Below, piece by piece: positions 3,226 to 37,887 of a stretch of DNA of 64,000 nucleotides. Made by a program: the position numbers and the translations under genes. The notes below the pieces were generated by a model that saw only the letters and a program-made list of their open reading frames with translations, did no database searches and had not been told where the DNA came from. The number at the start of each line of letters is the position of its first letter. Position 1 is the stretch's first letter. Origin of the DNA: a candidate division FCPU426 bacterium (GTDB taxonomy: Bacteria; Oederibacteriota; JAAXVQ01; JAUVAV01); contig DAOWGI010000002.1 of the NCBI GenBank assembly GCA_030637655.1, forward strand, positions 32,001-96,000, given 5' to 3'.

Positions 3226-3228
3226 TCT

Positions 3229-6200: not shown

Positions 6201-6489
6201 TCCTGGTGAACTACGGTTCGGTATGGATGATGTGGCGATTGATAGGAGCACAGGTGAGATTGTATTTCCTGCGGATCCGGCAGGGTCCTGGAGCGATCTG
6301 AATTGGGCGCATCTCGTGAATGATGCAGCTGCCATGGACGCGCTTGGGCAGATAGATTTGCAGCAACCCATTCGATTGACAGGTAATCTTATCACTGAGT
6401 GGCAGAACGCGAACGCGGCCAATTTCGCGAGTATTTTATTTCAGAATCCAGTGATTTTTGCACGGCACGCGCAGGAGATGCTGCCGTAA
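3229..6489 (+). CDS. Conserved hypothetical protein, 1086 aa (operon gene B)
   Basis: Long ORF starting 3 nt after the gene A stop. Motif-like blocks: PWLRQG, GPGDIVG, EFYEEDFIWRYTP, LRPWLAL, HEMARELLWREYPTDQRGTYF, LLIRGELFQKYPN. No signal peptide seen. Confidence 0.85.
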   Translation: MSEPARYTFMPWLRQGIAAKIREKDVLGGQLPGNASRLRASLPVTLKLKDTNIKDGSTDTTLMEKDIKIIGPGDIVGIHKDAIVRTEPKKNEVKFEANCLAYIEFYEEDFIWRYTPASPEISGSQAHKLRPWLALIILTEDEFTYQTNLEGLSFITVQDGKLDTVFPPHTQTWAWAHVQVNQELTQPAGSEALIEELSSLLMQNPDAAVCRLLCPRKMKKETAYHAFLVPAFETGRLAGLGEPIPDIAAQEPAWKTGEAPAAGKKRPYDFPVYHEWKFKTGLYGDFESLVSILKSNPLDPELGKRPMDIQKPGYGLNENVSPALNSVNLGLEGSIKPPDFVSDPWPHGSGDDKYQQQLRDILNVPENMQAESYDPEDLPDNPFYNEPIPDDPIIMPPIYGKNQAAIRCLGDAGNPAWVDALNEDPRTRAVAGLGAQVVQKNQDKLMESAWQQIGEVNAANQKIREAELSRQVNRALFNKHLKNRSSDTFLAATSAMHKSLLPDTGTDAKTVQHAIETSQVPPAAKSAGFRRIIRPGKKSNRRMNESSQNDIRIHKQVIPNFNRERDEATGQEPLTAARPKVVPDMVLNTEAIHEDINQALNDFQEPKSLAMHTFLEILAALRQPALDRPQLLQALSERALDNAAAITYVEQMINQVENYRVDEGITEVRLSKVLFKELCGDYMTGKSHDWVLVYRSLDSGEEEHVTRMITLEELQTYQAVFTDFSGMIRSTQSLPQVLPPLAVLDQFSNSLKNSLDPLYTITKRVTHAIKVWSQAQQKFVRLQTLKPVMAHPTFPQPMFHHLKKLSQEFILPNMNKIPQNTLLLLESNQKFIEAYLAGVNHEMARELLWREYPTDQRGTYFEKFWDTKDNIVALDESQKKDILPMHKWKTDLGTHSPRSGNYLVLLIRGELFQKYPNTIVYAQRAAFAADLQAPRQLAETEDLTNTSIYRFPVFQGSLDTDVVLFGFDLDKHEARGNRADNPGWFFILKERPGELRFGMDDVAIDRSTGEIVFPADPAGSWSDLNWAHLVNDAAAMDALGQIDLQQPIRLTGNLITEWQNANAANFASILFQNPVIFARHAQEMLP

Positions 6490-6492
6490 AAA

Positions 6493-6526
6493 TAATAGGG
6501 GGCGATCCGGTGGGTTGTCCTTATTA
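6493..6526. repeat. Degenerate REP-like hairpin between genes B and C
   Basis: TAATAGGGGGCGATCC-GGTG-GGTTGTCCTTATTA is an imperfect stem resembling the GTAGGGGCGACC..GGTCGCCC palindrome at 47032. Confidence 0.4.
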
Positions 6527-6533
6527 AGGCAGG

Positions 6534-9500
6534 GTGGATATGTTACCGGATATTCAAGCAGCAGAGTATATAGATCCTCAATTACAGGATATTATCAACA
6601 ACATTCACAGCAAAGATGACCGGATACCTTTTCTGCTATTACCTGTGCGTGTGGAAACCCGGTTTATGCAGGTTGACCGGCCACTCAACCAGAGCTGGCA
6701 TGGGATGGATCGCGTGCTGCCCGATTTGGTTGAAGCCAACGATCAATTGAGCCTTTTTGGGAGTCAATCCGGCCGGCCTTTTTCCGGTACCTTGAAGCAA
6801 CTCAAAGCCTTGGATAATAAGTTTAAACGCGCGATCAGCAGTTTGAAAAAAGCTGGAGAGATACCCGCGCAAGCACAGGTTTGGCTGAAACAACAGACGC
6901 AAACACTTCAGACCCAATCACAACGTCTTATGCAAAAACTGAATCAAATGCGGCCCTCCCGGGCAGAGGATCGCACGGCTCTAAAAAAACAGAAAGATGT
7001 ACTGGCGGCAAGATTGAGTGTCCTGAAAGATATCGCGAAAGAACAATTACGTCCGGAGAGGGCAAAAGCCGAAGGCGCCGGAATCATCCTGCAGAGTATT
7101 CAGGAGATCGTGACCAAGCTGGAAGCGGTCCGGGCGGAAAAACTGGATGGCCGGTCCAAACCTGAGCGCCGTCAACTTTATGATACATTAGACGGGACCA
7201 TAAAACACATTGAGCAAGCCTTAAAAAGTCTCGAGAGCAAATGGAAAGCTTCCTGGAGCGCGTCAACTGTCGAGATAAATCAATTAAAGTCAGCTTATCA
7301 AAAAATAATTAAGACTGTGGAGGCACTACCCGGAAAATTGACGCCGATGTATTCGCAGTTTAAACGCAACGAATATCAGGAAAAATTTAAGGTCTTGAAG
7401 CAACGGTGTGTTGATCCCTTGCAGGAGCGCATTTTAAACCAATATATACCGGACATACAGCTTCAGCAGACTTTGAAAAAACGATCAACCAATGAGGTGT
7501 ATTACCAGACGCTGCAATTGGATTTGGTTATGCGTCGATTGAGTAAACAAGCGGTAAGCACTCTGGCGCAATACAGGAGTCTGGGTCAACAGCTGCTCTT
7601 GGAAGTAAGGAAAATAGGAAAAACCTTGGACCGTGTTATCATCGGCCATAAGGCGGAGTATCACCTGCTTCGTAAAACCTGGGATTCTACCCGGCAAGTA
7701 CTGGGAACGATGTTAAAGAGCGTTAAGGTCTTTCATAAACAGAGTACTGGAGCGATACCCGCAAAAGATCAAAAACAATGGCAGGAAATCCAGAGGTGGT
7801 ATATACGCCTAAAAACTCTGGCTGCTCAGGAGCTTCCTCGTGGGGCATGTATTTCCCGTCAAGCTGTTATTCGCAGCGCGCGAGTGTTTACTGAGGTCAA
7901 AGAACAATTGGATAAGCTAAATACCCAACTTAAAACAGTGCAGGAGAACAGTTCGGCAAGTCACAAGTCAAGAATTGGGGTGCTGGAAAAATATCTCGCA
8001 ATATCCCCACGTTTGCAGGCCTATGGTCGTCAGCTGACCGTTTTGCCTAAGCAGCAGCTTGGTCAGTTGAAAAAGACGCATCAGCAGATCCAGACCATGG
8101 CTAGAGAAAGCATCCAGACGTTAGCCGCGCGAAAAATTACCAATCCTGCCAAAAAAAAGGTTTGGCAAAAATTCGTTCAAACTGCGGAACAAACACAGAT
8201 CAACCTGGAGAAGATATTTTACGCGACAATAACAGACAGTCCTGTATATACAGGGGACATAAGACCCGAGGATGGACCGGGAGTTGTTTTTGAGGAAGCC
8301 ACACAAACGGTTGATGAATTATGGGTCCGGATTTATCCGGATGATGTCTTTGTCCATTCGCACGAGCCGGAACTTACCGCAGATGAGGTGGAAGCTGGAA
8401 AAACGTTTTGGCAGGAGACCTGGCTGGCCCAGGGTGATAGTGATCACCAGCTCGCTGCCTGGCGGACCTTGACCGCGAGCTTTGGCTCGCAACGCTCGGC
8501 CTGGATAGCCAAGCTTCTAAAACCCAAGCAGCTGACTCTGCCCCCTGAGAGGGAGAACCCCTTTAGAGTGCAGGACACAGTTCTAGAGGCACTAACGCAG
8601 GCCAACCAGGGTGTTGCTGAATATCTGCAGGCTGACCCTGCGGACGTAGAAGCAGGGGTGAATACCCTTGGCAAGGTATCTGATGCTTTTAAAGCCATGG
8701 AGGATGTATTTGCAGTGGGAGAGAGATGGCCTATCAGCATTTATCAGAAAATGGCCGGACAGCAGAAGCGCCTGCATGGCAAAATGATCGGTTTGAATAA
8801 ACATCTCCAGCGGGCAGCTATTCCAGATTCGGATCTTCGTGAACGGGCGGCACAAACATTAGGGAAGATAGGTGCGCAATACCATAAACTACAGAAACAA
8901 TTTGCTGCAGCTCAACCCATTTCCAATCAGGCTTGGTTTAATGAATACGCTCGGGAGGTTCTGCTTTTTCCTGAGGTGGCTGTTAAAGCGGAGACCTGGG
9001 CCCATGCGCCCCACACCAAAGTCCTGCCCGATCGGTTTGCTGTGCTTGCCTTGCAAGACGGAAATTTCCAGCACATTCAAGTAGGCCGGCTGATACCGAA
9101 TCCCCTCAACGTGGGTTTGAATCCGGAGAAGTTCAATCTGGATCTTTTTGCGTATGATGCAGAGGGTAACTTGAGCCTGGATGAGGATATTCAATGGATG
9201 ACGGATTTCGACCAGGCAGTACAAAAAGGTATGGGACTGATTCTCACCTTGAATACCGCGCAAGCAAATCAGGGGTTTGATAAGCTGCTGGTTCTGGGTG
9301 TGAAGGACAGCAGTGCCGCAGACGGTCAAGCTCGTTTGGAGGAGCTTCTTCAAAATCATCATTATGCTGACGAGGGTATGGCGTTTCTGCCGATTGGGAC
9401 ACCTACCAATAACACAGCCGAGGGAAAGGCCGGGTATTCCAGTTCTGACAGAACGGATGAGGAATCTTTTGCAGTGGAACGAAGAGGGGATTTGTTTTCT

Positions 9501-12500
9501 GTGCAAGAATCCGACCCCTGGCGCCAATCCGACGGCTTGCGTATGGCTGAGGCACTGGGTATCACGGCCGATGTTTTCCAGAATATTGAGAACAGCCAGA
9601 GAACTGAGATCAGTCAGGCCTTGGTTATGAATCACGCTTTGTGGCATGGGACACTCGGTTATTATATGGAGGATATTTTAGACACTTTTTTTGACCTGGA
9701 TACGATTCGCAGAATGCGAAGCTTCACCACTCAGTATGTGTGCGGCCGAGGCCGGCTGCCTTCTCTGCGAATCGGGAGTCAACCTTATGGAATACTGCCT
9801 GTCACAGCGTTTTCCAAAATAGCCATCACCCCGGGAAATGTTCTGCCGGAAATCACAGCAGCGGATGAGAACAATCCAACTCTGCACGAAGAGAAAAAAG
9901 CCCAGCGGTTTGCTATTCAATATTTCAAGCTGCTCGGGCTCATGCAAAATGAATGGATGCAGCAGGCCAAGACCCAGGTGAAGTGTTCTGACAACACTGA
10001 TCCTCAGGATCCCCAGCTGCATTTTATGACTATGCTGGGTTTGCACGCTTCTTCGGTAGAGACCTATCAGCGGTATAACCTGAACGTAGCTGACCGCCGG
10101 ACTAATCCGACATCCCAAGAGAGCTCGGTCAATTTTAATGAGGGAGATTATTTTGGGCCGTTCGCGTTCTGGGCGAAATTCAAGGATGTCTTGAACACTT
10201 CACCTGAAGCTGAAAGGGACTGGCATAATAAGATCAGGCAAGCACGATTGTACCGGTCACGTTACTTGCAGACCCATTCCTGGTTAAAAGGTCCGCGGGT
10301 AGATGATAAGACTCTCTCAGAGAAAGCAAGCCTGCAGCCTGTTGAATATGACGGCAAGAACCAAACCTATATCGATTGGCTTTTGGGATCACACCTCTAT
10401 GCTCTCTGGAATGATAATAATCTGGAGACATTACCCTCCAGGTCTTTGCTTTTCCTGCTGCTGCGTCAGTCCCTCTTGCTGGAGTACCGCGACGCGGCAC
10501 TCAATGTATTTCAGAAAGAAAAATTGATCGATGAGAATATTCGGAGTCTGATAGGAGATCCGGGCTACTATTTTACATACTCGCCTTTTAAAAAAGGGCC
10601 TACCTTCATTACCAAATGGTCCTGGCTCTTCCACGGCATACAGAAACTGGACGGATTGTATCGCAATGTATTTCCCGATAACGCTCCCTTAAAACTTCAT
10701 CTCGGCGAACACTCGTTAGCGGAATTTCTCTATGATTCAGAGCACAATTCACTTTTTAATTCATACGCGCATATGGGCCAACATCAGCCGGCTATTGAGA
10801 GCATCAACAAAATGCGTCGCGCGGTTTCCGTGTTGAATGGCGTGCCTACCGCTCAATTGGACCGGCTTTTTTCTGAGCAGCTGGACATATGCTCTTATCG
10901 TTTGGATGCTTGGATATTGAGTCTGGCAAACGAACGGCTTGGTCAATGTCGCGCTCAGCAGCCGCAGGGAATTTATCTGGGCGCTTTTGGATGGCTGGAG
11001 AATCTCCGGCCCGGTGGGGAACGGGAAGTAGCGCCTCGTGTCCCGGATTCCCTCCAACGCCCCGGTGAACCACTGGTTTATACAGATGCAGACAACCAGG
11101 GTTTTATTCATGCGCCCTCTCTAAGCCATGCTGTGACAGCCGCCATTTTAAGAAGCGGATATAAGAGCAATCAAGCCACGGATGATGTTGAGAACCAGTT
11201 GGCAGTCAACCTGTCTTCGCGGCGGGTACGCGCAGCCTTGTATCTGCTGGAAGGTGTTCGTCAAGGTCATGAAATCGCGGCTCTGTTAGGTTATCAGTTT
11301 GAGCGCGGACTGCATGAACGTTATACTTCCGCCGGCTTGGAATTGGATGCCTATATTTTTCCTTTGCGCCGCAGATTTCCGTCAGTCGGAACAGTGGATG
11401 AAAACTTAGCCCGGACTGACGCGCAGACCCAGGTTGTCGATGGGCAGGCCTTGTTACAGGCGGTGCGCCAGAGTATTGAAGATTTGGATTCCGGACAGGA
11501 TACACTCTTAAACATATTGGAATCACATCCGGAACGTTATCCCTTTGGAGTAGAAGAGTCCGGTACGAGCCTGCTGCCTCCGAATGGCACTCTGGAATTG
11601 CGAGCCATCTTTAAAGAGATAAACCGCATTGCCGACGCGTTTGACGCGTTGGGAGATCTGCTGCTCTCTGAGAGTGTCTATCAAGTCGCGCGCGGAAATC
11701 ATACCCGGGCCGCGGCAGTGGTAACCGCTCTCTCTGAAGGGCGTTATCCGCCGGATGTGCAAATCATGAAAACCCCGCGGGGTGGGATTGCGGTGACACA
11801 ACGTGTGGGCTTGTGTCTGGCACCGGTTGACGGCCAAACGCTCTCGATAGCTTCCGGACTGCCTGAAAGTACGGTTGCGGGAAACATAGAAAACGCAAAA
11901 CCTGCAGGCTGGGAAGAGGTGACATATAGCGTCAGGGCTTTAGCAGAACCTAGTTTAAATAAATGGCTGGGTGAAATGATAGGTGATCCGGACAAGGTCC
12001 GTTGTGTGGTTGAATATTCGGGTGAAGAGGGGACAGAGAGTATTCCGGTGACTCTGAAAGCTTTGGATATTCAACCCTTGGATTTGGTCCAGATGATGGG
12101 CGCCGGACTGGCTGAAGGGGGAAGCGAGCTGAATAACCGGATAGCTTACTGGGTCCGACAGCACAGGCAATTAACCGTAGCACAAGAGTTGAAAATATTT
12201 GTCCAGGAACGAAGTCAACGGCTCCTTCTGCCTGAGAGCAACGAATTACTGACTACCGGTATAAAGACTTTTTATGAGATCGCACCGCTCGTGACAAATC
12301 TCTGGGAAGTAACCCAAGGAAGTCGGCCTCTAGCTGCCGATGACGTGATGATCCCCGAAGAAGAGCCGGATGCGCCGGCTGATCCCACGCGGCAGAATTT
12401 GTCAGAATATGCTTTCCGCCTTAGGCAAGCCAAGGCGGCCATGGAGAAGACAGGGATAGATATCCTTAAATTTTTTAGACAGACAGAGGCTGTCCCGGAG

Positions 12501-13529
12501 TCCCTGGCGGAAATTGATATCAAGGCTGAAATCTATTCCGATGAAACCATTGACCAGGAATCCGAATACATTCAGACCCGGATAGACACTTTGCGGACCC
12601 TGCTTTTCCAAGCCTCTGCTTTTGGTATTCCGCAGGCAGTGCCTGAAAGCGCGTTTGAGTCCACCCCTGAGATCGGCAAAGCCTTGACACAGCAGGTCGG
12701 CAGAGTCTTGCCCATCCTGGTGAAGCGCTTAAAAGAGTATGCTCAAGCCATGCTGCACCAGACAGCGTCTGCTTGCGATGAAGCTTTCCGGAAAATATTT
12801 GGACGCGCCTTTAGAACTTTACCGCTGTTTGAATTGCGCAATAGCCAGGAGTTGCAGACAGTTTATGCAGCTCGGGATGATCTTCTGCGGCATGTGCGCA
12901 GGCAGGTGTCTGCTTTTTCCCTGGACTTGTGGTTCCAAAGTGCAGCCAAGACCCGCAAACGTTTAGGCCCGCTAGAGAGCGTTGCTCTACTAGCGGACAC
13001 CTTTGGTCAGACCGCTCCCAGCCTGACAGCTTTGCAATTACCTTATCAAGCAGATGATTATTGGTTGGGATTGGAGTTCCCCGGAGACTGGGAGATAGAC
13101 AGTGACAAATTGTCTCTGGTCCTGGGAAACGCAGACCTGCTCTCTCAAAATAGCACGCATTACGCGGGTTTAATATTTGATGAGTGGGTGGAGATTATTC
13201 CCCACAAGCAAGAGGTGACCGGAATTACTTTTAACTATGATCAACCCGGTTCCATGCCGCCGCAGAGCGCCTTGCTGGCTGTGGCTCCCAATCAGACCGG
13301 GAATTGGTCTTGGGATAATCTGGTTTATACGCTCCTGGAGACTCTGGAATTGGCAAAACTCCGTGCGGTTGAGCCGGATCACCTGGATCAGACCTTGTTT
13401 TCCCAGATTGTTCCGGCAGTCATGAGTGAGGTTGTGCCTCAGCAAATGCAAGAGGGAGACGAGAATCCCATGGGAGTACAGATTGTTCTGGATTTTAAGG
13501 TCAACAATCCGCCTTCGGAAGAATCGTAA
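6534..13529 (+). CDS. Conserved hypothetical giant protein, 2331 aa (operon gene C)
   Basis: 7-kb uninterrupted ORF with a GTG/ATG start at 6534/6540. Motif-like blocks: LLLPVRVETRF, ELWVRIYPDD, GTPTNNT, LPSLRIGSQPYGILP, YRLDAW, GFIHAPSL, LLGYQFERGLH, FDEWVEIIP, PPQSALLAV, LELAKLRAVEPD. Confidence 0.85.
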   Translation: MDMLPDIQAAEYIDPQLQDIINNIHSKDDRIPFLLLPVRVETRFMQVDRPLNQSWHGMDRVLPDLVEANDQLSLFGSQSGRPFSGTLKQLKALDNKFKRAISSLKKAGEIPAQAQVWLKQQTQTLQTQSQRLMQKLNQMRPSRAEDRTALKKQKDVLAARLSVLKDIAKEQLRPERAKAEGAGIILQSIQEIVTKLEAVRAEKLDGRSKPERRQLYDTLDGTIKHIEQALKSLESKWKASWSASTVEINQLKSAYQKIIKTVEALPGKLTPMYSQFKRNEYQEKFKVLKQRCVDPLQERILNQYIPDIQLQQTLKKRSTNEVYYQTLQLDLVMRRLSKQAVSTLAQYRSLGQQLLLEVRKIGKTLDRVIIGHKAEYHLLRKTWDSTRQVLGTMLKSVKVFHKQSTGAIPAKDQKQWQEIQRWYIRLKTLAAQELPRGACISRQAVIRSARVFTEVKEQLDKLNTQLKTVQENSSASHKSRIGVLEKYLAISPRLQAYGRQLTVLPKQQLGQLKKTHQQIQTMARESIQTLAARKITNPAKKKVWQKFVQTAEQTQINLEKIFYATITDSPVYTGDIRPEDGPGVVFEEATQTVDELWVRIYPDDVFVHSHEPELTADEVEAGKTFWQETWLAQGDSDHQLAAWRTLTASFGSQRSAWIAKLLKPKQLTLPPERENPFRVQDTVLEALTQANQGVAEYLQADPADVEAGVNTLGKVSDAFKAMEDVFAVGERWPISIYQKMAGQQKRLHGKMIGLNKHLQRAAIPDSDLRERAAQTLGKIGAQYHKLQKQFAAAQPISNQAWFNEYAREVLLFPEVAVKAETWAHAPHTKVLPDRFAVLALQDGNFQHIQVGRLIPNPLNVGLNPEKFNLDLFAYDAEGNLSLDEDIQWMTDFDQAVQKGMGLILTLNTAQANQGFDKLLVLGVKDSSAADGQARLEELLQNHHYADEGMAFLPIGTPTNNTAEGKAGYSSSDRTDEESFAVERRGDLFSVQESDPWRQSDGLRMAEALGITADVFQNIENSQRTEISQALVMNHALWHGTLGYYMEDILDTFFDLDTIRRMRSFTTQYVCGRGRLPSLRIGSQPYGILPVTAFSKIAITPGNVLPEITAADENNPTLHEEKKAQRFAIQYFKLLGLMQNEWMQQAKTQVKCSDNTDPQDPQLHFMTMLGLHASSVETYQRYNLNVADRRTNPTSQESSVNFNEGDYFGPFAFWAKFKDVLNTSPEAERDWHNKIRQARLYRSRYLQTHSWLKGPRVDDKTLSEKASLQPVEYDGKNQTYIDWLLGSHLYALWNDNNLETLPSRSLLFLLLRQSLLLEYRDAALNVFQKEKLIDENIRSLIGDPGYYFTYSPFKKGPTFITKWSWLFHGIQKLDGLYRNVFPDNAPLKLHLGEHSLAEFLYDSEHNSLFNSYAHMGQHQPAIESINKMRRAVSVLNGVPTAQLDRLFSEQLDICSYRLDAWILSLANERLGQCRAQQPQGIYLGAFGWLENLRPGGEREVAPRVPDSLQRPGEPLVYTDADNQGFIHAPSLSHAVTAAILRSGYKSNQATDDVENQLAVNLSSRRVRAALYLLEGVRQGHEIAALLGYQFERGLHERYTSAGLELDAYIFPLRRRFPSVGTVDENLARTDAQTQVVDGQALLQAVRQSIEDLDSGQDTLLNILESHPERYPFGVEESGTSLLPPNGTLELRAIFKEINRIADAFDALGDLLLSESVYQVARGNHTRAAAVVTALSEGRYPPDVQIMKTPRGGIAVTQRVGLCLAPVDGQTLSIASGLPESTVAGNIENAKPAGWEEVTYSVRALAEPSLNKWLGEMIGDPDKVRCVVEYSGEEGTESIPVTLKALDIQPLDLVQMMGAGLAEGGSELNNRIAYWVRQHRQLTVAQELKIFVQERSQRLLLPESNELLTTGIKTFYEIAPLVTNLWEVTQGSRPLAADDVMIPEEEPDAPADPTRQNLSEYAFRLRQAKAAMEKTGIDILKFFRQTEAVPESLAEIDIKAEIYSDETIDQESEYIQTRIDTLRTLLFQASAFGIPQAVPESAFESTPEIGKALTQQVGRVLPILVKRLKEYAQAMLHQTASACDEAFRKIFGRAFRTLPLFELRNSQELQTVYAARDDLLRHVRRQVSAFSLDLWFQSAAKTRKRLGPLESVALLADTFGQTAPSLTALQLPYQADDYWLGLEFPGDWEIDSDKLSLVLGNADLLSQNSTHYAGLIFDEWVEIIPHKQEVTGITFNYDQPGSMPPQSALLAVAPNQTGNWSWDNLVYTLLETLELAKLRAVEPDHLDQTLFSQIVPAVMSEVVPQQMQEGDENPMGVQIVLDFKVNNPPSEES

Positions 13530-13555
13530 TAGGATATTTTGATAAGGAGTTTGTT

Positions 13556-15457
13556 ATGGCACGTTATAATGATTCAACTTGTGAGCCTTTCCGGTCGTGG
13601 AACCGGTTAGAACCACGCTGCCGGAAAGAGGACTTTGACCGGGTCTTAAAGGCAGAGATTCACGATCCTCTCTGGCTCTTGACCCGTCAGTGGCAATTTG
13701 GCGAGTTTAAAGGGGAAGACACAGGTTCAGCCATATTCGCTAAACTGGAGATGGATATTGTTAAATTATCCAAGTTTAAAGACCGGGTCAGTCCGGCCCA
13801 AGCCTATTCGGATAGTCTGCCTTTGGAAACGCGAATTGAACGCGAACCGATTCCTTTTGATTTTAAAACCCGGGTACAAATCGGGAGACAATGGTTCAAA
13901 CTGTTGGAACTGCAGGGGGAACAGTTTAATCAGACGTCACCCGGTGAACCCTATGTCTCGCATAGTTATAATAACCTCTTTTTTGAGAACTTTCCGCTTA
14001 CTCTACCGGAGATATTGGAAAACGAGACCCAGGAAGCTGTGGAAAAAAGTAAAATTCTAAGTGATCCGGCGCTGCATCAATTCCTCTCTGCTGTGACCGG
14101 GCGAGGTATAGATGGTGTTATTTTCTTCCAAAGCATTACTCAACCGGATTCTGACGTCATTGGTTTACCCGCCTTTCTGAACAACAGTATTTCTCCAGCC
14201 CATCGTAATTTTATCTTACAGGCGGCAACCGCTTTTGCCGAGTGGTTTAGAGGACTCTATTCACTGCCTGCAAGCGCAGGCGATGAGACCTGGTCTGAAG
14301 ATCATTTGGAGTATCAATGTGCTTGCGCGCTGACAAACAAAGATGGGACGAATACCGTATTAACAGCGGATGAGTTTTATCACAGTCATCTGGATTGGTA
14401 TGCGTTTGATGTTGATCCAAAGCCGGATCCGGGATCCGGCTTAACTATACCTGATACCCAGGTACAGGTGGAGACGAGGACGATTACGGTTATACCTACG
14501 GAGGCCCGATTTGGCGGTATGCCGAATCCGAGATGGTGGGAATTTGAGGACAGTTATATGGATCTGGGAAACATCCAGGCAGATACCACAGATGTGGCAA
14601 AAATACTCTTGTCAGAATTTGCTCTGGTTTTTAGCAATGATTGGTTTGTGATTCCTTGCGACCTGCCGGTAGGCAGTCTCTCACAGGTTAAGGGGATTGT
14701 GGTGACCGATGTTTTTGGACAGCGCACACTGGTGGAACCTGCCGGACAGGGTGCGGAGGACGCATGGTCGCGTTGGAGTATGTACAACCTGACAAGCAAA
14801 GAAACGTTGGAAGATGCAGTGCCAGCTGTGGACAGCCGGCTTTTTATTCCTCCGGCTATTGGTCAAAAGCAAGAGAGCGAGGCTGTCGAGGCAGTCCGCC
14901 TGGTTCGCGATGAGACGACAAATATGGTCTGGGCTGTGGAAACGCGCGTTCCGAACATGCTGGGGACCGGACGTGACGGTTTGGATGCAGCGCGTGAATT
15001 AAAAGAGTATATGCAGAAGTTAGCAACCGCTTCGGAAACCAATATTCCAGAAACGGAAAACCAGGCTCTGCTCAAGTATACTTTGAGCAACACGTTGCCG
15101 GAAAATTGGATTCCTTTTATACCGATACACAAACCTGGGCAGAATCGTTCTGTTGTTTTACAGCGTGGATCCATGCCCAGGATGTTTAGAGAAACGGTGA
15201 TGCCGGTGCGTCCCCGCAATCAACTATTGCGCCCCGGTTTGCGTGCCAACAACACGCAAGCTGAACCGTATTACATCTTTGAAGAAGAGGTCCCCAGAGC
15301 CGGGGTGGAAATCAAGAGCGCGTTCCAACGTACCCGCTGGTATAACGGCAAATTGTTTACCTGGTATGGACGTCAGAAGAAAACCGGGCGGGGAGAGGGC
15401 AGTAGTGGATTGCGTTTCGATATTTTGACAGATATTAAACACAGTCGGGAAAAATAA
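13556..15457 (+). CDS. Conserved hypothetical protein, 633 aa (operon gene D)
   Basis: SD TAAGGAG precedes the ATG. Motif-like blocks: WNRLEPR, DPLWLLTRQWQFGEF.GED.GS, LDWYAFD, GMPNPRWWEFED, NDWFVIP, RDETTNMVWAVE, PENWIPF, EEEVPRAG, GRGEGSSGLRFD. Confidence 0.85.
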   Translation: MARYNDSTCEPFRSWNRLEPRCRKEDFDRVLKAEIHDPLWLLTRQWQFGEFKGEDTGSAIFAKLEMDIVKLSKFKDRVSPAQAYSDSLPLETRIEREPIPFDFKTRVQIGRQWFKLLELQGEQFNQTSPGEPYVSHSYNNLFFENFPLTLPEILENETQEAVEKSKILSDPALHQFLSAVTGRGIDGVIFFQSITQPDSDVIGLPAFLNNSISPAHRNFILQAATAFAEWFRGLYSLPASAGDETWSEDHLEYQCACALTNKDGTNTVLTADEFYHSHLDWYAFDVDPKPDPGSGLTIPDTQVQVETRTITVIPTEARFGGMPNPRWWEFEDSYMDLGNIQADTTDVAKILLSEFALVFSNDWFVIPCDLPVGSLSQVKGIVVTDVFGQRTLVEPAGQGAEDAWSRWSMYNLTSKETLEDAVPAVDSRLFIPPAIGQKQESEAVEAVRLVRDETTNMVWAVETRVPNMLGTGRDGLDAARELKEYMQKLATASETNIPETENQALLKYTLSNTLPENWIPFIPIHKPGQNRSVVLQRGSMPRMFRETVMPVRPRNQLLRPGLRANNTQAEPYYIFEEEVPRAGVEIKSAFQRTRWYNGKLFTWYGRQKKTGRGEGSSGLRFDILTDIKHSREK

Positions 15458-27658: not shown

Positions 27659-27786
27659 GATTATGAATTGGATATGGAGGTAAATACGCGGGATAATTTT
27701 TACGAACTTCGGAATAGGTATACGTAATAAAATAAAATATGTTAGAATAAATAATAAGGTTACGAATGTTGAAGGAGGAAAGTGCA

Positions 27787-28602
27787 ATGGAAAAATATCG
27801 GGAGTCGAGAAAAGAAATACTGCTGGTGCCGGTTGGAAAAGTCTTGGTTGACATTTTAGGCGAAATTGCAGTCGCCTTGCGGAAAACATATAAATTTCAT
27901 GTCCATATTGGCAGGTCGGAAGAACCCGGCATGGATGAGTATTCGGATGAACGTCGGCAATACGATGCTAAAAAACTATTGGCTTTACCGACGGCGCGAA
28001 AACGCGATAGTCTGGTGGCTGTGCTGGGTGTGGTTGACGCGGATATGTTTGCCGGGGAAAAAAGTTTTGTTTTTGGTTTGAATAAACCGGAAAAAGGAAT
28101 CGGTATTATTGCTTTGTCCCGGCTGCGTGAGGAATTTTATAAAAAACCATCCAATTCGGAATTGTTTTTACGTCGGGCTGTGACAGAAGCCATTTATCAA
28201 GTTGGTATGGCAATGCAATTATCTCCCTGCGTTATGAAAAAATGCGTCTTGCTGCCCACAACCACATTATGGCGCTTAGACAGTAAAGCGCAGACCTTTT
28301 GCGATGCCTGTCAAAACCGAATGGAGCAAAAGTTACATCCCACGGCTGAACCAGCGGATAAAAAAAAGGAACCGGAAGATAACCTTGAAGACACTATCAG
28401 CGAAGGTCCGGCTGGTGAAGAAGTTTTAGCAGATCCAACAGAGTTACAAATCGAGGAGAAACGTCCGGAGGACGAATCCGAAATATCCGCCGAACTGGTA
28501 GAACCGGAAGGTCCGATTGCCGCCGAGGCTGCTGCCATACATACTGAAACCGCCGGTCCTGAGGAACCATTGGTCGCAGATGCTCAAGAGAATGAAAAAT
28601 AG
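27787..28602 (+). CDS. Archaemetzincin (M54)-like protein with degenerate zinc site and acidic tail
   Basis: RRQYDA, LGVVDADMF..FVFG, IALSRL, terminal C..C..FCDAC. The HExxH position reads YQVGM. Confidence 0.75.
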   Translation: MEKYRESRKEILLVPVGKVLVDILGEIAVALRKTYKFHVHIGRSEEPGMDEYSDERRQYDAKKLLALPTARKRDSLVAVLGVVDADMFAGEKSFVFGLNKPEKGIGIIALSRLREEFYKKPSNSELFLRRAVTEAIYQVGMAMQLSPCVMKKCVLLPTTTLWRLDSKAQTFCDACQNRMEQKLHPTAEPADKKKEPEDNLEDTISEGPAGEEVLADPTELQIEEKRPEDESEISAELVEPEGPIAAEAAAIHTETAGPEEPLVADAQENEK

Positions 28603-28628
28603 GGACCACTTGGTAAGCGTATCCCTCT

Positions 28629-29771
28629 ATGATCTCAGAATCCATTCGCAATTTACAAATAATTTCTTCACCCGGTGTCGGAGGACGGGAAATTGATGTT
28701 CCGGTTTTAGCGCGAAAACTTATAGCGCAAGGACATCCGACTTGGGTGATGTGCCGCCCGAATACGCTGGTGGATCGTCTTTCAGCAGAGTGGGATTTGC
28801 CTTGCGAGCCAACCGGAATGCACTGGTATTTTGATCCCAAAGATGTTCTGGGGTTAGCCCGTTTTCTAAAAGCAAACAAGATTCAAATAATCCACTCTCA
28901 TTGGTCGCGGGATCTGTCCAATCTCATTTTAGCCGCCGGTTTGGCTGGTCGGATACCGGTGGTCTTAACCAAACACGTGTATTCCACAGAGATAAAACGT
29001 GATATTTTCCATGATTGGGTATACCGGCACACAGATCGGGTTATTGCCATATCGGATTTAGTGGCGGATAACATCGCAGCTACGGTCTGTGTAGCGCGTG
29101 AGCGGGTTGTTACTATTTATAACGGTATTGAATTGGCAAACCAATGGAATCCGGAGTTGACACAGCAAGTGGATCTACGTCCGGAATTTGGTGTTCCTCC
29201 CGGCAAACCGGTTTTAGGGTATGTCGGGCGCTTGAATCGCGGAAAAGGACCGCATATGATTCTGGCTGCCTTTGCTCGTGTGGCCGCGGCTTTCCCGGAG
29301 TGGCACTTAGTCTTGGTAGGCAAAGCGGTAGGGGAGAGCGAAACCAAATACGCGAAAAAACTCAAAACCGAGGTATTCACGCAGGGCTTGGAATCGCGCG
29401 TTCATTTTCCGGGATATCGCACGGACATGCCCGCTGTGATGCACACCTTTGATCTTTTGGCCAATGCCTCAGAGTTTGAATCTCTAGGTATGGTGATGGT
29501 AGAAGCCATGGCCATGGAACGGCCGGTTATCGGTCCGAACACAGGTGGTGTGCCGGAAATAATAGAGCCGGGAGTTTGTGGGGAGCTTTTTAATTACACT
29601 GATCCCCAAGATCTATCTGACAAGTTAAAAAAGCTCATGGGAGATACTGCTTTGCGGACAGCCATGGGGAAAAAAGGCCGCGAAATTGTATTGCGTAAAT
29701 TTAATTTGGATCTTATGGCAGAGCAAGTAGTAACTGTTTTTCGTGATGTGTTGCAAAAGCAGAAGAGATAG
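28629..29771 (+). CDS. Glycosyltransferase family 4
   Basis: IIHSH, IYNGI, YVGRL..GKG, ESLGMVMVEAMAMERPVI, GGVPEII. Confidence 0.92.
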   Translation: MISESIRNLQIISSPGVGGREIDVPVLARKLIAQGHPTWVMCRPNTLVDRLSAEWDLPCEPTGMHWYFDPKDVLGLARFLKANKIQIIHSHWSRDLSNLILAAGLAGRIPVVLTKHVYSTEIKRDIFHDWVYRHTDRVIAISDLVADNIAATVCVARERVVTIYNGIELANQWNPELTQQVDLRPEFGVPPGKPVLGYVGRLNRGKGPHMILAAFARVAAAFPEWHLVLVGKAVGESETKYAKKLKTEVFTQGLESRVHFPGYRTDMPAVMHTFDLLANASEFESLGMVMVEAMAMERPVIGPNTGGVPEIIEPGVCGELFNYTDPQDLSDKLKKLMGDTALRTAMGKKGREIVLRKFNLDLMAEQVVTVFRDVLQKQKR

Positions 29772-30162: not shown

Positions 30163-33100
30163 ATGAATAAAATCCCATCTATTGCTGCTTTTCGCCATCC
30201 CCGGCTTAGCATTTGGCTGAAAGCTTGCGCCATTTTGATGACCGTGAGTTTTGTGCTGCCCTACGTGACCTGGGCCTTTGATGCCGGGAATTATGCTATA
30301 TCCCAACCTCATTTTCTGCGAATTGCTCACCTGGGAAAAGCGCTGAACGTTCCGGATAAAATCGGCGTCATTAAACAGGGTTTTCAGGGTAATGGCAAAA
30401 CCGTGGTCTGTATCCAGGATTTGCATTGCAATTATGAGGTACAGAAGAATATTGCCAATATTATCCAGCACCTGGTAAAAAAGCACGGCTTGAAGCTAGT
30501 GGGCGAGGAAGGGGCATTTCATACGGTCGATACCTCGCCAATCAGCGCTTTCCCTATAAAAAAAGTCCGGGAAGAAGTAAGCGATTATTTTGTCAAGCAG
30601 GGCAAGATCACAGGCGCGGAGCATTATGCCGCCATCAGCGGCGGCGTTATTCAACTGGAAGGCATTGAAACTCCCAAACTGTATGCAGCCGGCCAAAAAG
30701 CAGTGCGTAGCTTTTTGAATGCCGAGAGCCAGGGCTATTGCTATGATCTGCGCGATATGCTGGAAGAATTGAAAGCTGATATTTATAATTCCCAACTCTT
30801 GAAATTCGATGGCAAGCGCGTGGCTTATCGCGAAGGCGATATAGACATTCTGAAATACAGCGCATATCTGCATCGTATAGCCCGCAAGCTGCAAGTGGAT
30901 TTGAGCGTGTATCCCAATTTGGCCCGCTTTCTCAGTCTGAAGCAGAATATTTTCTCCGCAAAAGTTGACCCGGACCAGCTTTTCCAGGAACTGGACAAAC
31001 TGGATGCCCAAATCCGGCAACAGCTCTATACGGATAAAAAGCAACAGGAGTTGGATGAATTATATACCCGCCTGGATATTGTCGAAAGACTTCTCAATAT
31101 TTCCGTTTCCCAGGAAGAATTGCAAGCCTTTCGCACAGAGCGGGAAAAATATACAACCCAGGCATTTATAAATTTCGTAGGGGCGATTCGTGAATCGCCC
31201 ACCAATGAAGTGGATTATATTGAAAGTGATATGTATATCCTGGATGAATATTTAAAACAAGTGGAAGAGTTCTATCGCCTGGCAGATGAGCGGAGCATCC
31301 ACTTTGTGGACAACCTGGTCCGCAAAATGGACCGCCTGGACGAGAACCTGGCAGTCATGATCAACGGCGGTTTTCATACTGACAAAGTCCTGGCTGAACT
31401 CAAGCGCCGGGATATCACCTATGTTTCCATCAAGCCACGCGTGACCCAACAGGATGTGGTGAATCCGTATTTTTCCCTGCTTCAGGGTCGTAAAACCCCG
31501 TTGGAAAAGCTGCTGGCCAAGAATCAGACGATAATGGCGATAATGAATGGGTGGGAGAAGGATCCATCATTGACTCAACAAGTTGTATTATCTGTAAAAA
31601 CATTTCGCGAACTTATGAGACACGGCGAGATAAAGATAATCCTAAAAGATTATCAGAAGAAATCTTTAGCTGCCTATATGGAACAATTTTCCAGCATTAA
31701 ATTACTTAAAATAGAAGGCGAAGGCCTTCCGGACGGAGTTTATGCTTATTATTTATCAATTAACGGGAAGAAATCAGATAACGTTTCGCTGGTTATGCGT
31801 AAAGGTCTTGTGCCGGAGATATGGCTGAACCAGCTTAATTTCGTTAGTTTTCAAAAATATTCGCGATGGATTTTATTGGTTGTTAGGTCCGTGAAAAAGG
31901 TTGGTCAAGTGCGGCAGGCGGTTCGGAAAAGTCCGAAGGCCTGGCCTGAAATGTTTTTCAAGGCGTGTGTGCTAGCAGTACCGGCATGGATAAAAGCAAT
32001 AAAAAAAGAAGCATTAGCAGGCGTGGCAGTTGGAATCGCGCTGGCAGTATTTATAGTCAGCGTCAATGTACCGGGCATTGTAATAACAGTACTGTTGAGT
32101 TTAACTATACTAACACAAATGAGAATGGATTTAAGGTATATGCAATTAGCCGGAGTGCCGCGAGTGGCAGGACAATGGATGTCCAAGGTTAGACAAAAAA
32201 CCAAACTTGCTTTATTGAACGAAGGGTTGCCGGCGAAAACAGTGCCAGGCACCGAAGCCGAAAAAAAGATACCTCAACATAAAGAGTTGAATACCAAAAA
32301 TAACGAGACAAGTAAAACCTTGAAGGATCGCTTCGCGAACTTGCTGCTGCACTCGGATAACATTCCGCGGGGCGCGTCGCTTACTCACGAATTATTCCGT
32401 TCATTGTTGGCTATTGATGAAAATACTGCCCTTGAGGGATGGCTGAAATATTTTGTGCCGGTTTATAGTGGTGTTACAGAAGAGGTGTGTAGGTTTAATT
32501 CGGAAATGCCCCAGACGCGCATGCCGGAAATACTGATTTTGGTAGGTTTGAAATTAGCTGACCGGGAGCTGGAATACCAAGCGCAATTAGCTCGCTTGAT
32601 AAGAGGGCAAAAGGTGGACTTGAAGGCAGTGGGCCCGGTTTTTGATACTAGTATGAATAATTATTATAATATTTTAGGAGTTTCACGCGATGCTTCTAGC
32701 CATGAGATTAAAAAAGCTTATAGAAAATTGGCTTTAAAATATCATCCGGACCAAACTCGCGGAAATAAAGAGGCTGAGGAGAAGTTTAAGAAAATAGAAG
32801 GGGCTTATTCGGTCCTAAGTGATCCAGATAAGAGAAAAACGTATAATTTGATGGGCCATGCTGCTTATACAAAAAGGCAGAGGTTTGGCGGCGGTATTAT
32901 GTTGTGGCTGCGGAGTATTTGGGTCGGGATAGGCAATTTTTTAGATAGTCTGGGAGTAGAGGCAGCTTGGGTTAAGAAGGTATTTAGCGAAAAGACTTAT
33001 GACTACGCGGTGGCCTCGATCGCGGAAAATGCCATTGTCAAGTATGCCGGACCATTACTGGCTCCGGCTCTCATAATTTTGTTTCCCGAAATCACTCAGA

Positions 33101-36100
33101 ATCAGGCAGCCTGGGCGCTTTTCCTCGGACTGCATATTCCTCAGATGTTTTGGAAAAAAGGCCGGCAGCTGCGCTATACTCTGCCCACTTTTGCACTAAC
33201 AGCCATTGGCTTGTATTCTGACCTTTCGCCCCTGGGCGATGGTTTGATTGTGCATTTAGCCGTGAATTTGGTTCTATACGGGATCGCACCGTGGATTATG
33301 AGCCGTATGGGCAGGGCTAAACTAAAGGAAAAAGCACAGAAATTAATTAAGCAGTTAGCTGGAATGTTGAAAAAGGAGCCAGGTGCCGAAAAAAAATCTA
33401 AAACAATGCAATATTCGCCGCTCTCTATAGCAGAAAGCGCTTTAGAGGAAACTCATCCAGGATTTGCTGAAAATCATCCTGACCTATACTATGAAATCAC
33501 TACGGAAATAGTGCCTAAATATGAATCATTACTATTTATTTGGGGCAAGAGGGAGGTGGCATTTAAGAAATTAAGAACAGAAGTAAATGAGCTTCTTGAG
33601 AAAGAAGGGCTGCAAGAAATAGAATTGAAGATGGAAGAAGTATATATACTTCCTTATGAAAAGCTGACCAAACATTTTATAGTAGGGAGTTTGTCGGTTT
33701 TCCTAATGTTTCAATATCCCGGGATAGCGTATCTTATAGCGGCAACAATACCGTCGTTGATTTATACACTGGTTCGAACCAATATTTATCAATTAATGTA
33801 CAAAGGGAGAGAAAAAGAAAAACGGTTATGGTGGGTCGGCTTTGTTTTGGCAGTTACGATGAATTTCAGGATGCTGATTTTGCCTATGTTGATTTATGTG
33901 ATATCAGTAATATTTAAAATAACAGGGATATTATTTGGGATTTGGATTTTTACTCTCGCTTGTTACGGAGTGTGGTACGGCATAAAACTAACACAGGAGG
34001 ATGATAAAGCGCGACGATTAACTATCCGAATTATTGCCTGGTATAATAAAAAAGTTCTGGAGTGGAGAAAAAAGGGGAAGGGCTTAAGAGCCAGGAGTAA
34101 GGGGCTCTCAACAGCAGACAAAAAAGCGGAGCAAAGCTTTGATGAAGCATTAAAAGCAGCGGAGATAAAAATAAATAAATATTTAACAATTCTGAATATA
34201 CCTGATATCCCTTTGGATGAAATTAATTATGATGTGATCGTGGAATATGCCGAGAAAAAAACCTATGGATATGGGTCATTTAAAGAAACAGATGAACAGC
34301 ATAAAGCATGTTCGGTATTACGGGAACTATATGAAATAATGGGCAAGATGATTCTGAGGCAATTATATGAAGATGTCAAAATAGTCAATGAAAAAATGAT
34401 TTCTGCTCAGAAAATTATACAACTGCGTGATCTGTTGAAAAAAATTGATGAAAGTACTGATAAAAGTGTTTGGGAGTCGACCTTAAACGGGATTGTTGAG
34501 AAAAGCAAAGAGTTCCAATTGAGTTTTAATATAAATATTGTACAACCAACGTCAGCCGGTTATCCTTCAGAAAAAGAATATCGCGAAAATGTGTCGGAGA
34601 TGATTGAACTTGTTCGGAAGTTCACTGAGTTGGAAAAACAAATATCTCCGGCAGCTGCGGGCGAGTTTCGCGCAAGTGAAAGCAAACATGATGGCATTCT
34701 GGCGGTAGAACCGCCTATCGGAAAGATGATTTCAATAATTGAGCTAGAGTATCTTGTGCGTAAGGAGAAGTATGAGGATTCAAAATCCAGTCATAATGTC
34801 GAAAAGCTAATTGAGGATGTGAAAATAAATACCCCGGGCACACTGATAGAAGAATTTCTTCGCGTATTTTTAGTGCTAAAAGAGAATTATGAAATAAAGC
34901 GAAAAGATATACAGTCAGGCATTACTACACCCCTTGGCGGGAAATCCAGTCTGCTAAAGAAATGGACGCTTATGCTGTTTCCGGATTGGGCAGGGCGTAA
35001 GTATACCAAGCTTCGTCTGGTTTTCATTGAAACCGGCTGGGTGCTGTTTTTGGGCGGGGTAGTGATGACCGGGCTGTGGGTTTTGAGCATGCTGGGAATG
35101 CCAATGCTCGCGGATTGGTTTCCGATTGACACCATAATAGGGCAAATGCAGAGCATGTTTGAGATAGCCTTGATTTTCTTCCCAATTTTGCATTTGGATA
35201 AGGTATTTAATTGGATATTGGATAGAGCGCCCCCTGATCTTGATCGTTTATTAAGCCCGGTTTTACGCACTAAAGAACCAACCCCCTTGCCCAATGCCGC
35301 GATCGCTGCCGGTATATCCGCGCTGGCCTATATTTCCCTGCTGCAGGCCTGGGGTATTGTGATTGGCCTGCTGGTCTTTATTCTTTCCCACGCGGCAGTT
35401 AATCTGTATTTAGATATAGTACCCACCATTGCCCAAACTGTTAAAGCCGACCCAGTGCCTTTGACTTCCGGTTCAGTGCGGCCTCAAGGGGTTGGCGATT
35501 TGTTCGGCGCTAGTGGCGAAAACATGGTTAAGCGCCACTGGTTTTTTAAAATTCCAGGCACGAAATTGCTGGTGCTGCCGCTTATAGCACTTTTGTTTTT
35601 CCTGATCCCGTCTAAAGTTGTGGGTAATATGACAATTACGAATAAGGAGATTCTGCAAGCGCAATTGGCCTGCCGGCAGGCATTGCATGGACAAACTGTT
35701 AAAAATTCAAAGCAGCTGGCAGCGGGCAAGACGATCTATGAATTAATATTCGGCAAATTTTCAAGCGCCAATGACTTTCCAATGTACTTGAAATACATGA
35801 CCGATTCGGTCGAACTGCGGGTGGTGGAACCGGCTGATGATAATGCCTCCTTTTTTGAAAAATTCAAAACCACTATACATGCAATCACAGCAGCTTTTTT
35901 TGGAACTCATACTGATACCCATCAAACGAATATATACGTATCAAAAAGCATGCTGGCATTGGCACTGGCAGAATCGAAAAATCAGCCTCAAACCTGGAAA
36001 GAGCAGCTGCTTACCCGGCTGGCAAAATTGCATTTGGGCCTGGTAATATGGTTTCAGAGCAATCTTTGCAAGACAATAATAAAGATTAGTTTAATCCCAT

Positions 36101-37887
36101 CTGAGCTGGGCCTGGACGCAGCTGTTAATGTTTTGAAGCATCTTGGTTTTGGCCAAAAGTCCGGCGAAAAATTTCCTGCCGGCCATATGGACGTAACTGA
36201 TTATACTGCCAAGATCCAGGCAGCCGGGAGCATGACCTGCGACAGCTCGCTCTTGCTGAACTTGATAGGACAGTACAGTCTGGATGTACAGAAAGTGCTT
36301 CAAAATCCCATGATCATGCCTTTGCTAAAGATTCTCATGCTGAAAGCATATCTCCTGGGTGATGTCAGGATGAATGCGGATACCTTAATCAGGGCAGCGC
36401 AAATGCCCATTGACGATTTGTTGCTCAGGGATGAGAAAGGGAATCCAGTAATTGATTTTACGGCCTTGAATGAGTTGACCGTCCAATACGGCCTGGCTGA
36501 GTTTGAATTTTTGCCGGAAAACATTGAGGCCATCATTTTCGAGGCCAAGGAAAATCCGGTCATGGAAACCATGCTGGTCCAGGTGTTGTCCGCGAATCCT
36601 GAAGCCAGGGAAGTACCATTAGCAAATATTGGCACCATGCTCAACGCACTGCTGGCTGATCAAAAAAGCTATAGGCCGGATACATCACAGGCCGGTCGAG
36701 TGCCTGAGACGATGGCAATTCAGGATATGCAAATATTACTGCCCCGGGAGACAGCTAAAGCAATGTTGCGCCAGGTCAATAAACTGCTGGCAGATCTTGG
36801 CAGGCATTCTGCGCCCGGCTTAGTTAAACGTCTCACAGTTTTGCAGAGTATCCTGCAAACTGCCGGGGATAATACTGCTTCCGGGCTGATTATAAAACTA
36901 ACCGCTGAAGACCGCCCCTTCATTCAGGAACTGGCCGGCGAAATAATGCGTATTCAGCGCAGTAGTTCGGCGGTGGCATTCGTACCCCAGTTAGACCAAT
37001 ATGGCGCGCTGGTTGCATCTGATACGGGCGAGATAAAGCAAGTGCGGGTTGAAACCACCCCAGGGCAATTTGAAGTTTTAGAAATTTTTAAGCGGGATTT
37101 ATTCGACCTCGCAGCCACATCGGTTGAGGCCTTACAAGCAGGTGTCAAAGCGATTTATAAGCGCCAAACCCCGGCTCAGGCTGAGATGAGGTTGTTTAGC
37201 GGTAAATACAAAGCCTGGGTGACAAATAAGCCCATAACCGGTTTATCTGCGGCTGATCAATTCTGGCTGCTGATGGCCAAAATCATACCTTTGCGGGTAT
37301 TTAAAATCGCAGTTCACAAGCGTATTCAATATAGGAAGCCCTATGGATACATAAAAGCCCGGATATGGGATACCCTGCCAATGGAACTCAGAAATGCGCC
37401 TCTGGCCCGGGAATTTTTCCGAAAAGTGAAAAATGAAGCCAATGAAATATCACTGGCGCCCGGCAAACGCGCGGTTTTCAATACTTGCTGGAATTTTACG
37501 AGCGCTGATTGGAAGAATAAAGAAGCCTCGGCTAAGGCAGAATTGGAATTTGCCCTGAGCATGGTACTTTTCCTGGAAAAGCATAAAGGGCCCAGGCATT
37601 ATCAAAACCTGGCTCTGTTTTTCCATGTGGTCAGACAGATGCAATCCATAACCCCGCTGCACTTTGCCAAAATGGATAAAACCTGGCAGTCTCAATATCC
37701 TTATCTTATTCATTCCGAATATCATATTCCGGCTGCTTTGAGGAAAGTATCCAGAGGATTTTTCGGCAAAGTAAAAGAACTGGTCGAATACAGCACTTCT
37801 CAGGAGTATTCGCCGTTTGTGGTTATTGATAAGTGGCTCGATCTGTTTGAGCGTAAAATTCAGCGTTGTTTTGGTGGGTCAGCGTAA
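30163..37887 (+). CDS. Giant (2574 aa) multidomain membrane protein with an internal DnaJ J-domain
   Basis: 7.7-kb ORF with SD AGGGAG and an N-terminal signal/TM. IQDLH..EEG..GGFH domain; J-domain [40 protein letters not shown] at ~32653-32850; several TM clusters. Confidence 0.85.
31177..31200. repeat. GTAG-type REP lying in frame inside the giant CDS
   Basis: GTAGGGGCGATTCGTGAATCGCCC, translated as VGAIRESP. Confidence 0.8.

Follow-up and report, generated by a model that had tools for sequence, protein, structure and literature searches.

A 64,000-nucleotide stretch of contig DAOWGI010000002.1 (assembly GCA_030637655.1, positions 32,001–96,000 of the forward strand), from a candidate division FCPU426 bacterium, was analysed and is called the window here; nucleotide coordinates refer to it. 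On its forward strand, the open reading frame (ORF) list and translation give an uninterrupted ORF of 2574 aa (30163–37887) that encodes the giant protein P0001, which crosses the membrane several times and has soluble domains interspersed among its membrane modules. The sole Pfam family found in P0001 is the J domain (DnaJ) at residues 833–895 (32659–32847, +), which carries the HPD motif within KYHPDQ, matches PF00226 with 97.1 bits (E = 6.5e-28; cut-off 27.8 bits) and is also matched by NCBIfam DnaJ models. Fourteen residues beyond the end of the J domain a GGG opens module 1, a segment of about four hydrophobic helices (residues 909–1053; 32887–33321, +), and further along the chain lies module 2, with four hydrophobic helices (residues 1588–1764; 34924–35454, +). 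Known CPBP proteins are stand-alone membrane proteins whose roles in bacteria are mostly unclear. Here we show that modules 1 and 2 are real, conserved, roughly four-helix membrane modules and not products of chance, and we propose that they most likely derive, with great divergence, from a CPBP protease domain.

CPBPs are defined by the motifs EExxxR, FxxxH and HxxxN/D, as set out in passages of PMC13692083, which for Rce1 assign the first Glu and the motif-2 His to a catalytic dyad, the motif-3 His and Asn to the oxyanion hole, and the second Glu to a buried salt bridge with the Arg. The original prediction saw two sets of such motifs in P0001, and its positions proved exact. In module 1, E955 starts at 33025, FLGLH (987–991) spans 33121–33135 and HLAVN (1031–1035) spans 33253–33267; in module 2, E1623 starts at 35029, FPILH (1673–1677) spans 35179–35193 and HAAVN (1743–1747) spans 35389–35403. 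Motif 2 (FxxxH) and motif 3 (HxxxN/D) are thus present in both modules. The linker containing GG that had been described before each module was found as well, as GGG (909–911) 44 residues before E955 and as GG (1592–1593) 30 residues before E1623. Around both motif sets the Kyte–Doolittle windows are hydrophobic and the AlphaFold2 (AF2) models, which are of low confidence, are all-helical, in line with the transmembrane helices that had been read there; by hydropathy and this low-confidence secondary structure, E falls on the first hydrophobic helix, H on the second and H..N on the fourth. Further landmarks are Y946 and E955-N956 in module 1, and Y1614, IET (with E1623), a 12-residue stretch at 1673–1684 and DRAPP (1687–1691) in module 2. 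The modules keep exactly the dyad and the oxyanion hole, so the retained residues match the catalytic set described for CPBPs in the passages of PMC13692083.

An F...H pair followed 30–75 residues on by an H...N pair occurs twice in P0001, against a mean of 0.046 in composition-preserving shuffles (n = 5000), and only 0.14% of these shuffles held two or more. The pattern was defined post hoc, after the sequence had been seen, and conservation is therefore a better test than the count. Of the 44 histidines of P0001, only 3 lie in 19-residue windows whose average hydropathy exceeds 0.9, and each of these belongs to a motif. No exception to E, H, H and N occurs among the five close relatives of module 2, the two module-1 sequences or the five members of a wider module-1 family, A6, described below.

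The homologues of the modules are themselves giants. An exhaustive HMMER search with residues 901–1800 against 1.84 billion representatives (E ≤ 0.001) matched four proteins and a word-indexed search three, all of them 2127–4702 aa long; the homologous giants of P0001 are P0003–P0007. Six further copies of module 2 were located, two each in P0003 and P0005 and one each in P0004 and P0006. The columns invariant among the five closest copies include GG, Y, I-E-T, H-L-D-K-V, R-T, N-A-x-I-A-A and H...N. Across all seven copies, both His and the Asn/Asp are kept in 7/7 and the Glu in 6/7, the exception being the second copy of P0005, whose N-terminal half is divergent. Module 1 has one weak homologue, residues 1515–1620 of P0007 (E = 6e-4 library-wide), identical to it at E-N, G-L-H and V-H-L-x-V-N. 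A search of proteins of up to 2000 aa with the module-2 alignment returned only an identical fragment, P0002, and a genome scan with the same alignment gave 218 pattern matches, none of which was confirmed.

P0001 also shares with other giants its N-terminal part, a signal-anchor helix (residues 15–39) and a conserved domain of about 460 aa (30163–31554, +), recognized by BLASTP at 41–84% identity to P0003, P0005, P0006 and P0007 over residues 1–464/609. A Pfam search with these ~460 residues found no match; their invariant stretches are one of 16 residues and NGGFH. When GTDB genomes were scanned with an alignment of this domain from five giants, 264 of 301 pattern matches were confirmed as relatives, and 79 of the 264 places (L001–L079) entered the locus-level analyses. 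These loci come from metagenome-assembled genomes labelled Firestonebacteria, Goldiibacteriota, Elusimicrobiota/Endomicrobia, Omnitrophota, Sumerlaeota and others; the domain always stands at the start of very long ORFs and often occurs as many paralogues per genome. The soluble domains vary, from the J domain of P0001 to protein kinase, FHA, LRR, AAA_5 and ARM/HEAT domains in other giants. Domains of the pyruvate-phosphate-dikinase (PPDK) type (PPDK_N, PEP-utilizers) occur in the related giants L044:5790-16541, L005:9968-21709, L078:1-7599 and L047:6026-12019; a methyltransferase is embedded in L014, and L013 contains HTH domains. Among the 112 ORFs of at least 900 aa from these loci and P0001–P0007, 17 carry HxxxN/D inside a hydrophobic stretch, and 2 of 13 such segments run against Pfam gave a sub-threshold match to PF02517. 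Hidden Markov models (HMMs) of the modules and jackhmmer seeded from modules 1 and 2 found no new members among the ORFs of the 79 loci, and jackhmmer seeded from L014 did recover family members from the same loci.

Two module families emerged from the iterative searches. Family A7 comprises modules of Endomicrobia-type giants (L044 twice, L047, L078 and L059, plus a fragment in L042) with the motifs EExx[FL][KR], F-P-L-A-H and H-S-x-x-N. PF02517 matches four of five A7 members at E ≤ 10, with 26.4 bits for L059 (gathering score 22.4), 21.5 and 21.1 bits for the two copies of L044 (28.1 bits for the whole protein) and 18.5 bits for L078; NCBIfam MroQ or MrtJ models also match four of five, weakly. 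By Pfam, the A7 modules are CPBP. L047, a clear A7 member (jackhmmer E = 1e-57) in which motif 1 reads A-E-N, has no PF02517 match, and because it fails despite clear homology, failure against PF02517 is to be expected for single-Glu variants. Family A6 comprises modules of L014 (twice), L002, L005 and L013 with the invariant columns GG, P, Y, E-N, W, F...H-F, R-A-P-P and H...N. Profiles were named in the same way for the module-2 family (A1) and for module 1 with its P0007 homologue (A4).

Profile comparisons tie the modules of P0001 to these families with decreasing strength. In round 3 of jackhmmer from L014, residues 938–1053 of P0001 were included at E = 2.6e-4, the next unrelated match standing at E = 0.15, and hhalign aligned A6 with A4 over 139 columns (probability 96.8%, E = 2.7e-10), pairing GG, YD, EN, W..F.GLH and H..VN. 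Since the two methods agree, module 1 is a member of A6. Between A6 and the module-2 profile, hhalign gave a score of 27.9 over 130 columns (probability 16%, P = 0.0016), with GG, Y, E, LH, RAPP and H...N in register. That score was reached by none of 50 global column shuffles (mean 11.8) and none of 50 shuffles in blocks of 10 (mean 15.7, maximum 21.8), and the reversed alignment scored 17.5. A merged module-1 profile against module 2 scored 26.2, reached by none of 60 shuffles, so this link holds. Between A6 and A7, hhalign aligned 102 columns (probability 5.3%, P = 0.0073) with E, F...H and H...N in register.

An alignment of 19 modules with MAFFT was colinear, and the columns kept in at least 16 of the 19 are Tyr (16), Glu (18), Phe (17), His (19), His (19) and Asn (17, or 18 with Asp). 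The Glu is followed by E in four modules, by N in eight and by T in seven. Motif 1 thus forms a graded series from EExxxR (L059) through EExxxK (L044) and ENxxx (L047, A6, module 1) to ETxxx (module 2); in all 14 modules of A6, A4 and A1 the second position is N or T, and the position of the Arg is variable.

The relation is also visible in the architecture of the giants. In L044, PPDK_N (1938–2235) runs directly into a CPBP module (2243–2412), and in L005, PPDK_N (1620–1928) runs directly into an A6 module (~1935–2076). The two PPDK_N domains are homologous (BLASTP E = 2e-19), and the shared slot behind them provides an independent architectural argument for a relation between A6 and CPBP. 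L014:9941-21346 carries two A6 modules that are 54% identical and L044:5790-16541 two CPBP modules that are 53% identical, so module duplication within giants is recurrent. Together, these results place the modules of P0001 in a related set that recurs, often more than once per protein, in giants of Firestonebacteria-, Goldiibacteriota- and Elusimicrobiota-like bacteria.

Several results weigh against a CPBP origin of the two modules, or against their kinship with each other. First, motif 1 is incomplete, reading E955-N-A-I-V-K in module 1 and E1623-T-G-W-V-L in module 2, and the motif spacing in module 2 is 54 and 66 residues compared with ~33 and 55 in aligned CPBPs. Neither module matches PF02517 or any other Pfam family at E ≤ 10, PF02517 does not match the whole of P0001 at E ≤ 1, none of the five A6 members matches PF02517, and NCBIfam CPBP models matched none of seven modules tried (modules 1 and 2 and five A6 members). 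The bridging hhalign probabilities are low (16% for A6 and module 2, 5.3% for A6 and A7); the A6–A7 score of 23.2 was reached by 1 of 55 block shuffles, and the merged module-1 profile against A7 gave a weaker link (score 18.7, P = 0.042), reached by 1 of 48 shuffles. Eight other giant modules gave short local matches only: no convincing profile link was found for the membrane-embedded HxxxN/D segments of L001, L012, L029, L035, L058, L059b, P0004 (at 2080) and P0007 (at 664). The original prediction had also called the two modules repeats of each other, which direct comparison does not bear out: BLASTP between them found matches of 9–11 residues only (best E = 0.22) and hhalign of A1 against A4 gave a probability of 0.4%. 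What stands of that claim is the connection through a third profile, A6, alone.

Structural comparison was equally silent. The AF2 models are poor, with a mean predicted local distance difference test (pLDDT) of 64.1 and a predicted template modelling score (pTM) of 0.46 for module 2 (7-sequence alignment), and 54.0 and 0.36 for module 1 (2-sequence alignment). Foldseek against the PDB with these low-confidence models gave best E values of 3.8 (module 2) and 1.0 (module 1), with Rce1 unlisted, a silence that says little because the query models are poor. In the ESM Atlas, module 2 found generic membrane-helix look-alikes (MscS TM1, 0.90, 165 shared features) and module 1 found no look-alike. 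Searches of PDB sequences with hmmsearch, using A1 and A7, did not find Rce1.

The stand-alone CPBP gene of the same genome, P0008 (51986–52933, −; PF02517 49.4 bits, E = 5.5e-13), served as positive control and profile seed. A profile of P0008 and 16 homologues (A5), which finds Rce1 (4cad) at 1.2e-12, and a 7-sequence profile of the canonical core gave no signal against either module. Both profiles also fail against the PF02517-positive A7 (probability 1.5%) and thus have little power; because they miss A7, their silence is not counted against homology.

We propose that modules 1 and 2 most likely descend from a CPBP (Rce1-like, type II CAAX/Abi) intramembrane glutamic protease domain, with which they would share common ancestry at great divergence. 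Motif 1 would have kept its catalytic first Glu, motif 2 its Phe-x3-His and motif 3 its His-x3-Asn; the second Glu and the Arg of EExxxR, partners in the structural salt bridge of known CPBPs, would have been lost together. The original description of the modules as divergent single-Glu CPBP-like units accordingly survives in the catalytic residue set, its order and register and the slot within the giants, and is left short by the missing CPBP profile match, the weak bridges and the unusable models. Because a complete motif 1 and a match to a curated profile are both absent, the modules are filed as CPBP-like and not as CPBP members. CPBP domains occupy the same positions in related giants, which suggests that the modules are probably not chance motifs but very divergent proteases, or anchors, built into the chain. 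That they are CPBP-derived single-Glu units which are active, or potentially so, we judge to be an evenly balanced proposition.

Each module opens at a conserved Gly-Gly and continues into an amphipathic stretch. Lys and Arg abound in this stretch and in the loop that comes after motif 2, and the loops between helices 1 and 2 and between helices 3 and 4 are short or acidic. With an even number of helices, a module begins and ends on one side of the membrane; together with the charge distribution, four helices would place both module ends and the J domain in the cytoplasm, where the other soluble domains would likewise be kept. This topology would put the conserved polar residues of module 2 and A6 within the cytoplasmic half of the membrane; for module 1, whose last helix has a shorter run ahead of its His, the placement is less clear. 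The Glu/His/His/Asn set may thus form an active site near the cytoplasmic leaflet, and the modules may be active endopeptidases, possibly acting on their own chain. The further step, that the giant is a self-processing, membrane-tethered polyprotein whose modules cut their own chain at or near the upstream Gly-Gly, appears improbable to us. The cargo that such a cut would release or activate is the cytoplasmic part ahead of the module: in P0001 the J domain, in its relatives kinase, FHA, LRR or PPDK domains. One long gene would deliver membrane-proximal enzymes by means of iterated, cis-acting CPBP cassettes.

A CPBP-derived module need not be catalytic. Modules 1 and 2 could be anchors or scaffolds that tether the J domain, kinase, FHA and PPDK domains to the membrane, their polar residues being conserved for helix packing or metal binding; this we hold to be possible, though hardly probable. 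The Glu-Arg salt-bridge pair of motif 1 is absent from 14/14 modules of A6, A4 and A1, an even helix count would suit a pure anchor, and non-catalytic CPBPs are documented in passages of PMC13692083 and 10.1101/516906. The family also degenerates in this lineage, since P0008 lacks the motif-2 His and the motif-3 Asn: it and its closest homologues have Arg in place of the motif-2 His of canonical relatives, and HxxxF or RxxxS at motif 3, so that P0008 itself may be non-catalytic. However, the residues of the chemistry are kept in the 19 modules (Glu 18/19, His 19/19, His 19/19, Asn/Asp 18/19) although these are otherwise only 17–35% identical, and the salt bridge occurs in catalytic and non-catalytic CPBPs alike according to passages of PMC13692083, so its loss is in itself no argument for inactivity.

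Alternatively, the modules may be unrelated to CPBP and represent a lineage-specific four-helix unit, for example an ion- or metal-binding or transport-like one, that arrived at E...H...HxxxN by convergence. No CPBP model matches either module, the low-confidence structural models found no match, the ESM features of module 2 resemble generic channel helices, and the links to A7 rest on P values of 0.007–0.04, with ~2% of shuffles reaching the observed score. Even so, the A7 alignments run over the full length with all three motifs in the same columns, the slot directly after PPDK_N is common to L005 and L044, and motif 1 changes in graded steps from EExxxR to ETxxx; we consider convergence unlikely. 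That the motifs arose by chance in ordinary transmembrane helices and share no function is very improbable and is effectively refuted by conservation: the pattern was picked after viewing the sequence and a single Glu within ~50 residues is common, yet paired motifs are rare in shuffles and homologues from other organisms do not vary at these residues. Descent from a CPBP domain remains our preferred account of the two modules.

The rest of P0001 contains three more hydrophobic regions. A long stretch at residues ~617–650 (32011–32112, +; hydropathy peak 2.51 at 627–645), homologous to residues 1287–1380 of P0003, is taken to be a helix that returns the chain to the cytoplasm. A cluster of 3–4 helices at residues ~1180–1275 (33700–33987, +), recognized by hydropathy, is not another module of the same kind and has neither the E/H/H/N pattern nor a membrane-embedded His; it has only a weak match to DUF6142 (E = 0.0085, under the cut-off of that family). 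A single further helix follows at residues ~1800–1825 (35560–35637, +; hydropathy 2.51), and a Pfam search of the C-terminal ~750 aa after it found no family.

P0008 was also considered as a partner of the giant and rejected, there being no evidence for it; the gene lies 14 kb away on the opposite strand. In L003 and L022, orthologues of P0008 are found nearer to giant genes, at distances of 2.7 kb and 8 kb. The gene for P0001 is immediately preceded on its own strand (27766–29771, +) by genes for an M54 (archaemetzincin-type) peptidase and a GT4 glycosyltransferase. At the start of the window (1–15457, +) runs a series of four large co-directional ORFs, possibly a separate unexplained system: the first is 5′-open at window position 1, ends at 3225 and matches DUF6603 (450 bits), and the next three (1086, 2331 and 633 aa) have no Pfam family.

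If the proposed origin is correct, the CPBP family would extend to a single-Glu form that current profiles miss and that keeps the dyad and the oxyanion hole without the salt bridge thought to stabilize the fold. Giant multi-domain proteins of little-known phyla would also prove to use the CPBP domain as a recurring cassette, giving a testable idea for how giants are anchored, and perhaps cut, a question left open in passages of 10.1101/2023.11.21.568195.

Among known systems, DjlA resembles P0001 in having a J domain with HPD beside the membrane, and the NCBIfam DjlA model matches weakly, below its cut-off (E = 7e-7). DjlA itself is small, with a single helix at its N terminus, whereas the J domain of P0001 is internal and is followed by a multi-helix module. 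The giants of Omnitrophota, Elusimicrobiota and other members of the PVC group, as portrayed in passages of 10.1101/2023.11.21.568195, share with P0001 the very long ORFs, the many transmembrane helices and the mosaic of domains, but P0001, at 2574 aa, is much shorter. The same passages suggest that giants might be cleaved by peptidase domains embedded in them (C39, S8), and they contain no description of the shared N-terminal domain; the terms CAAX, CPBP and DnaJ do not occur in the text of that paper. An in-text search of 10.64898/2026.06.07.730766 returned no occurrences, and a literature search, with subscription-only papers outside its scope, did not turn up any account of CPBP domains within giant proteins.

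The non-catalytic CPBP/Abi proteins Abx1, CflP and SpdC are likewise divergent CPBP domains with an incomplete motif set and, in passages of PMC13692083 and 10.1101/516906, act as membrane scaffolds. According to these, CflP lacks the catalytic first Glu and keeps the salt-bridge Glu-Arg, the opposite of what is seen in modules 1 and 2. The modules can also be compared with CPBP/Rce1-like proteases themselves (PF02517; MmRce1, 4CAD; MroQ, myxosortase). They differ from these in lacking the second Glu, the Arg and an HMM match, and in being preceded by a conserved Gly-Gly and an amphipathic stretch; the A6 and module-2 families differ further by an extra RAPP loop motif after motif 2. CPBP/Rce1-like proteins are stand-alone proteins of 200–350 aa, whereas the modules here are embedded, more than one to a multi-domain protein of several thousand residues. 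They are alike in motif order, in spacing class, in the apparent use of helices 1, 2 and 4 of a predicted four-helix core, and in the first Glu, the Phe-x3-His and the His-x3-Asn/Asp, and related giants hold PF02517-positive modules in the same slot.

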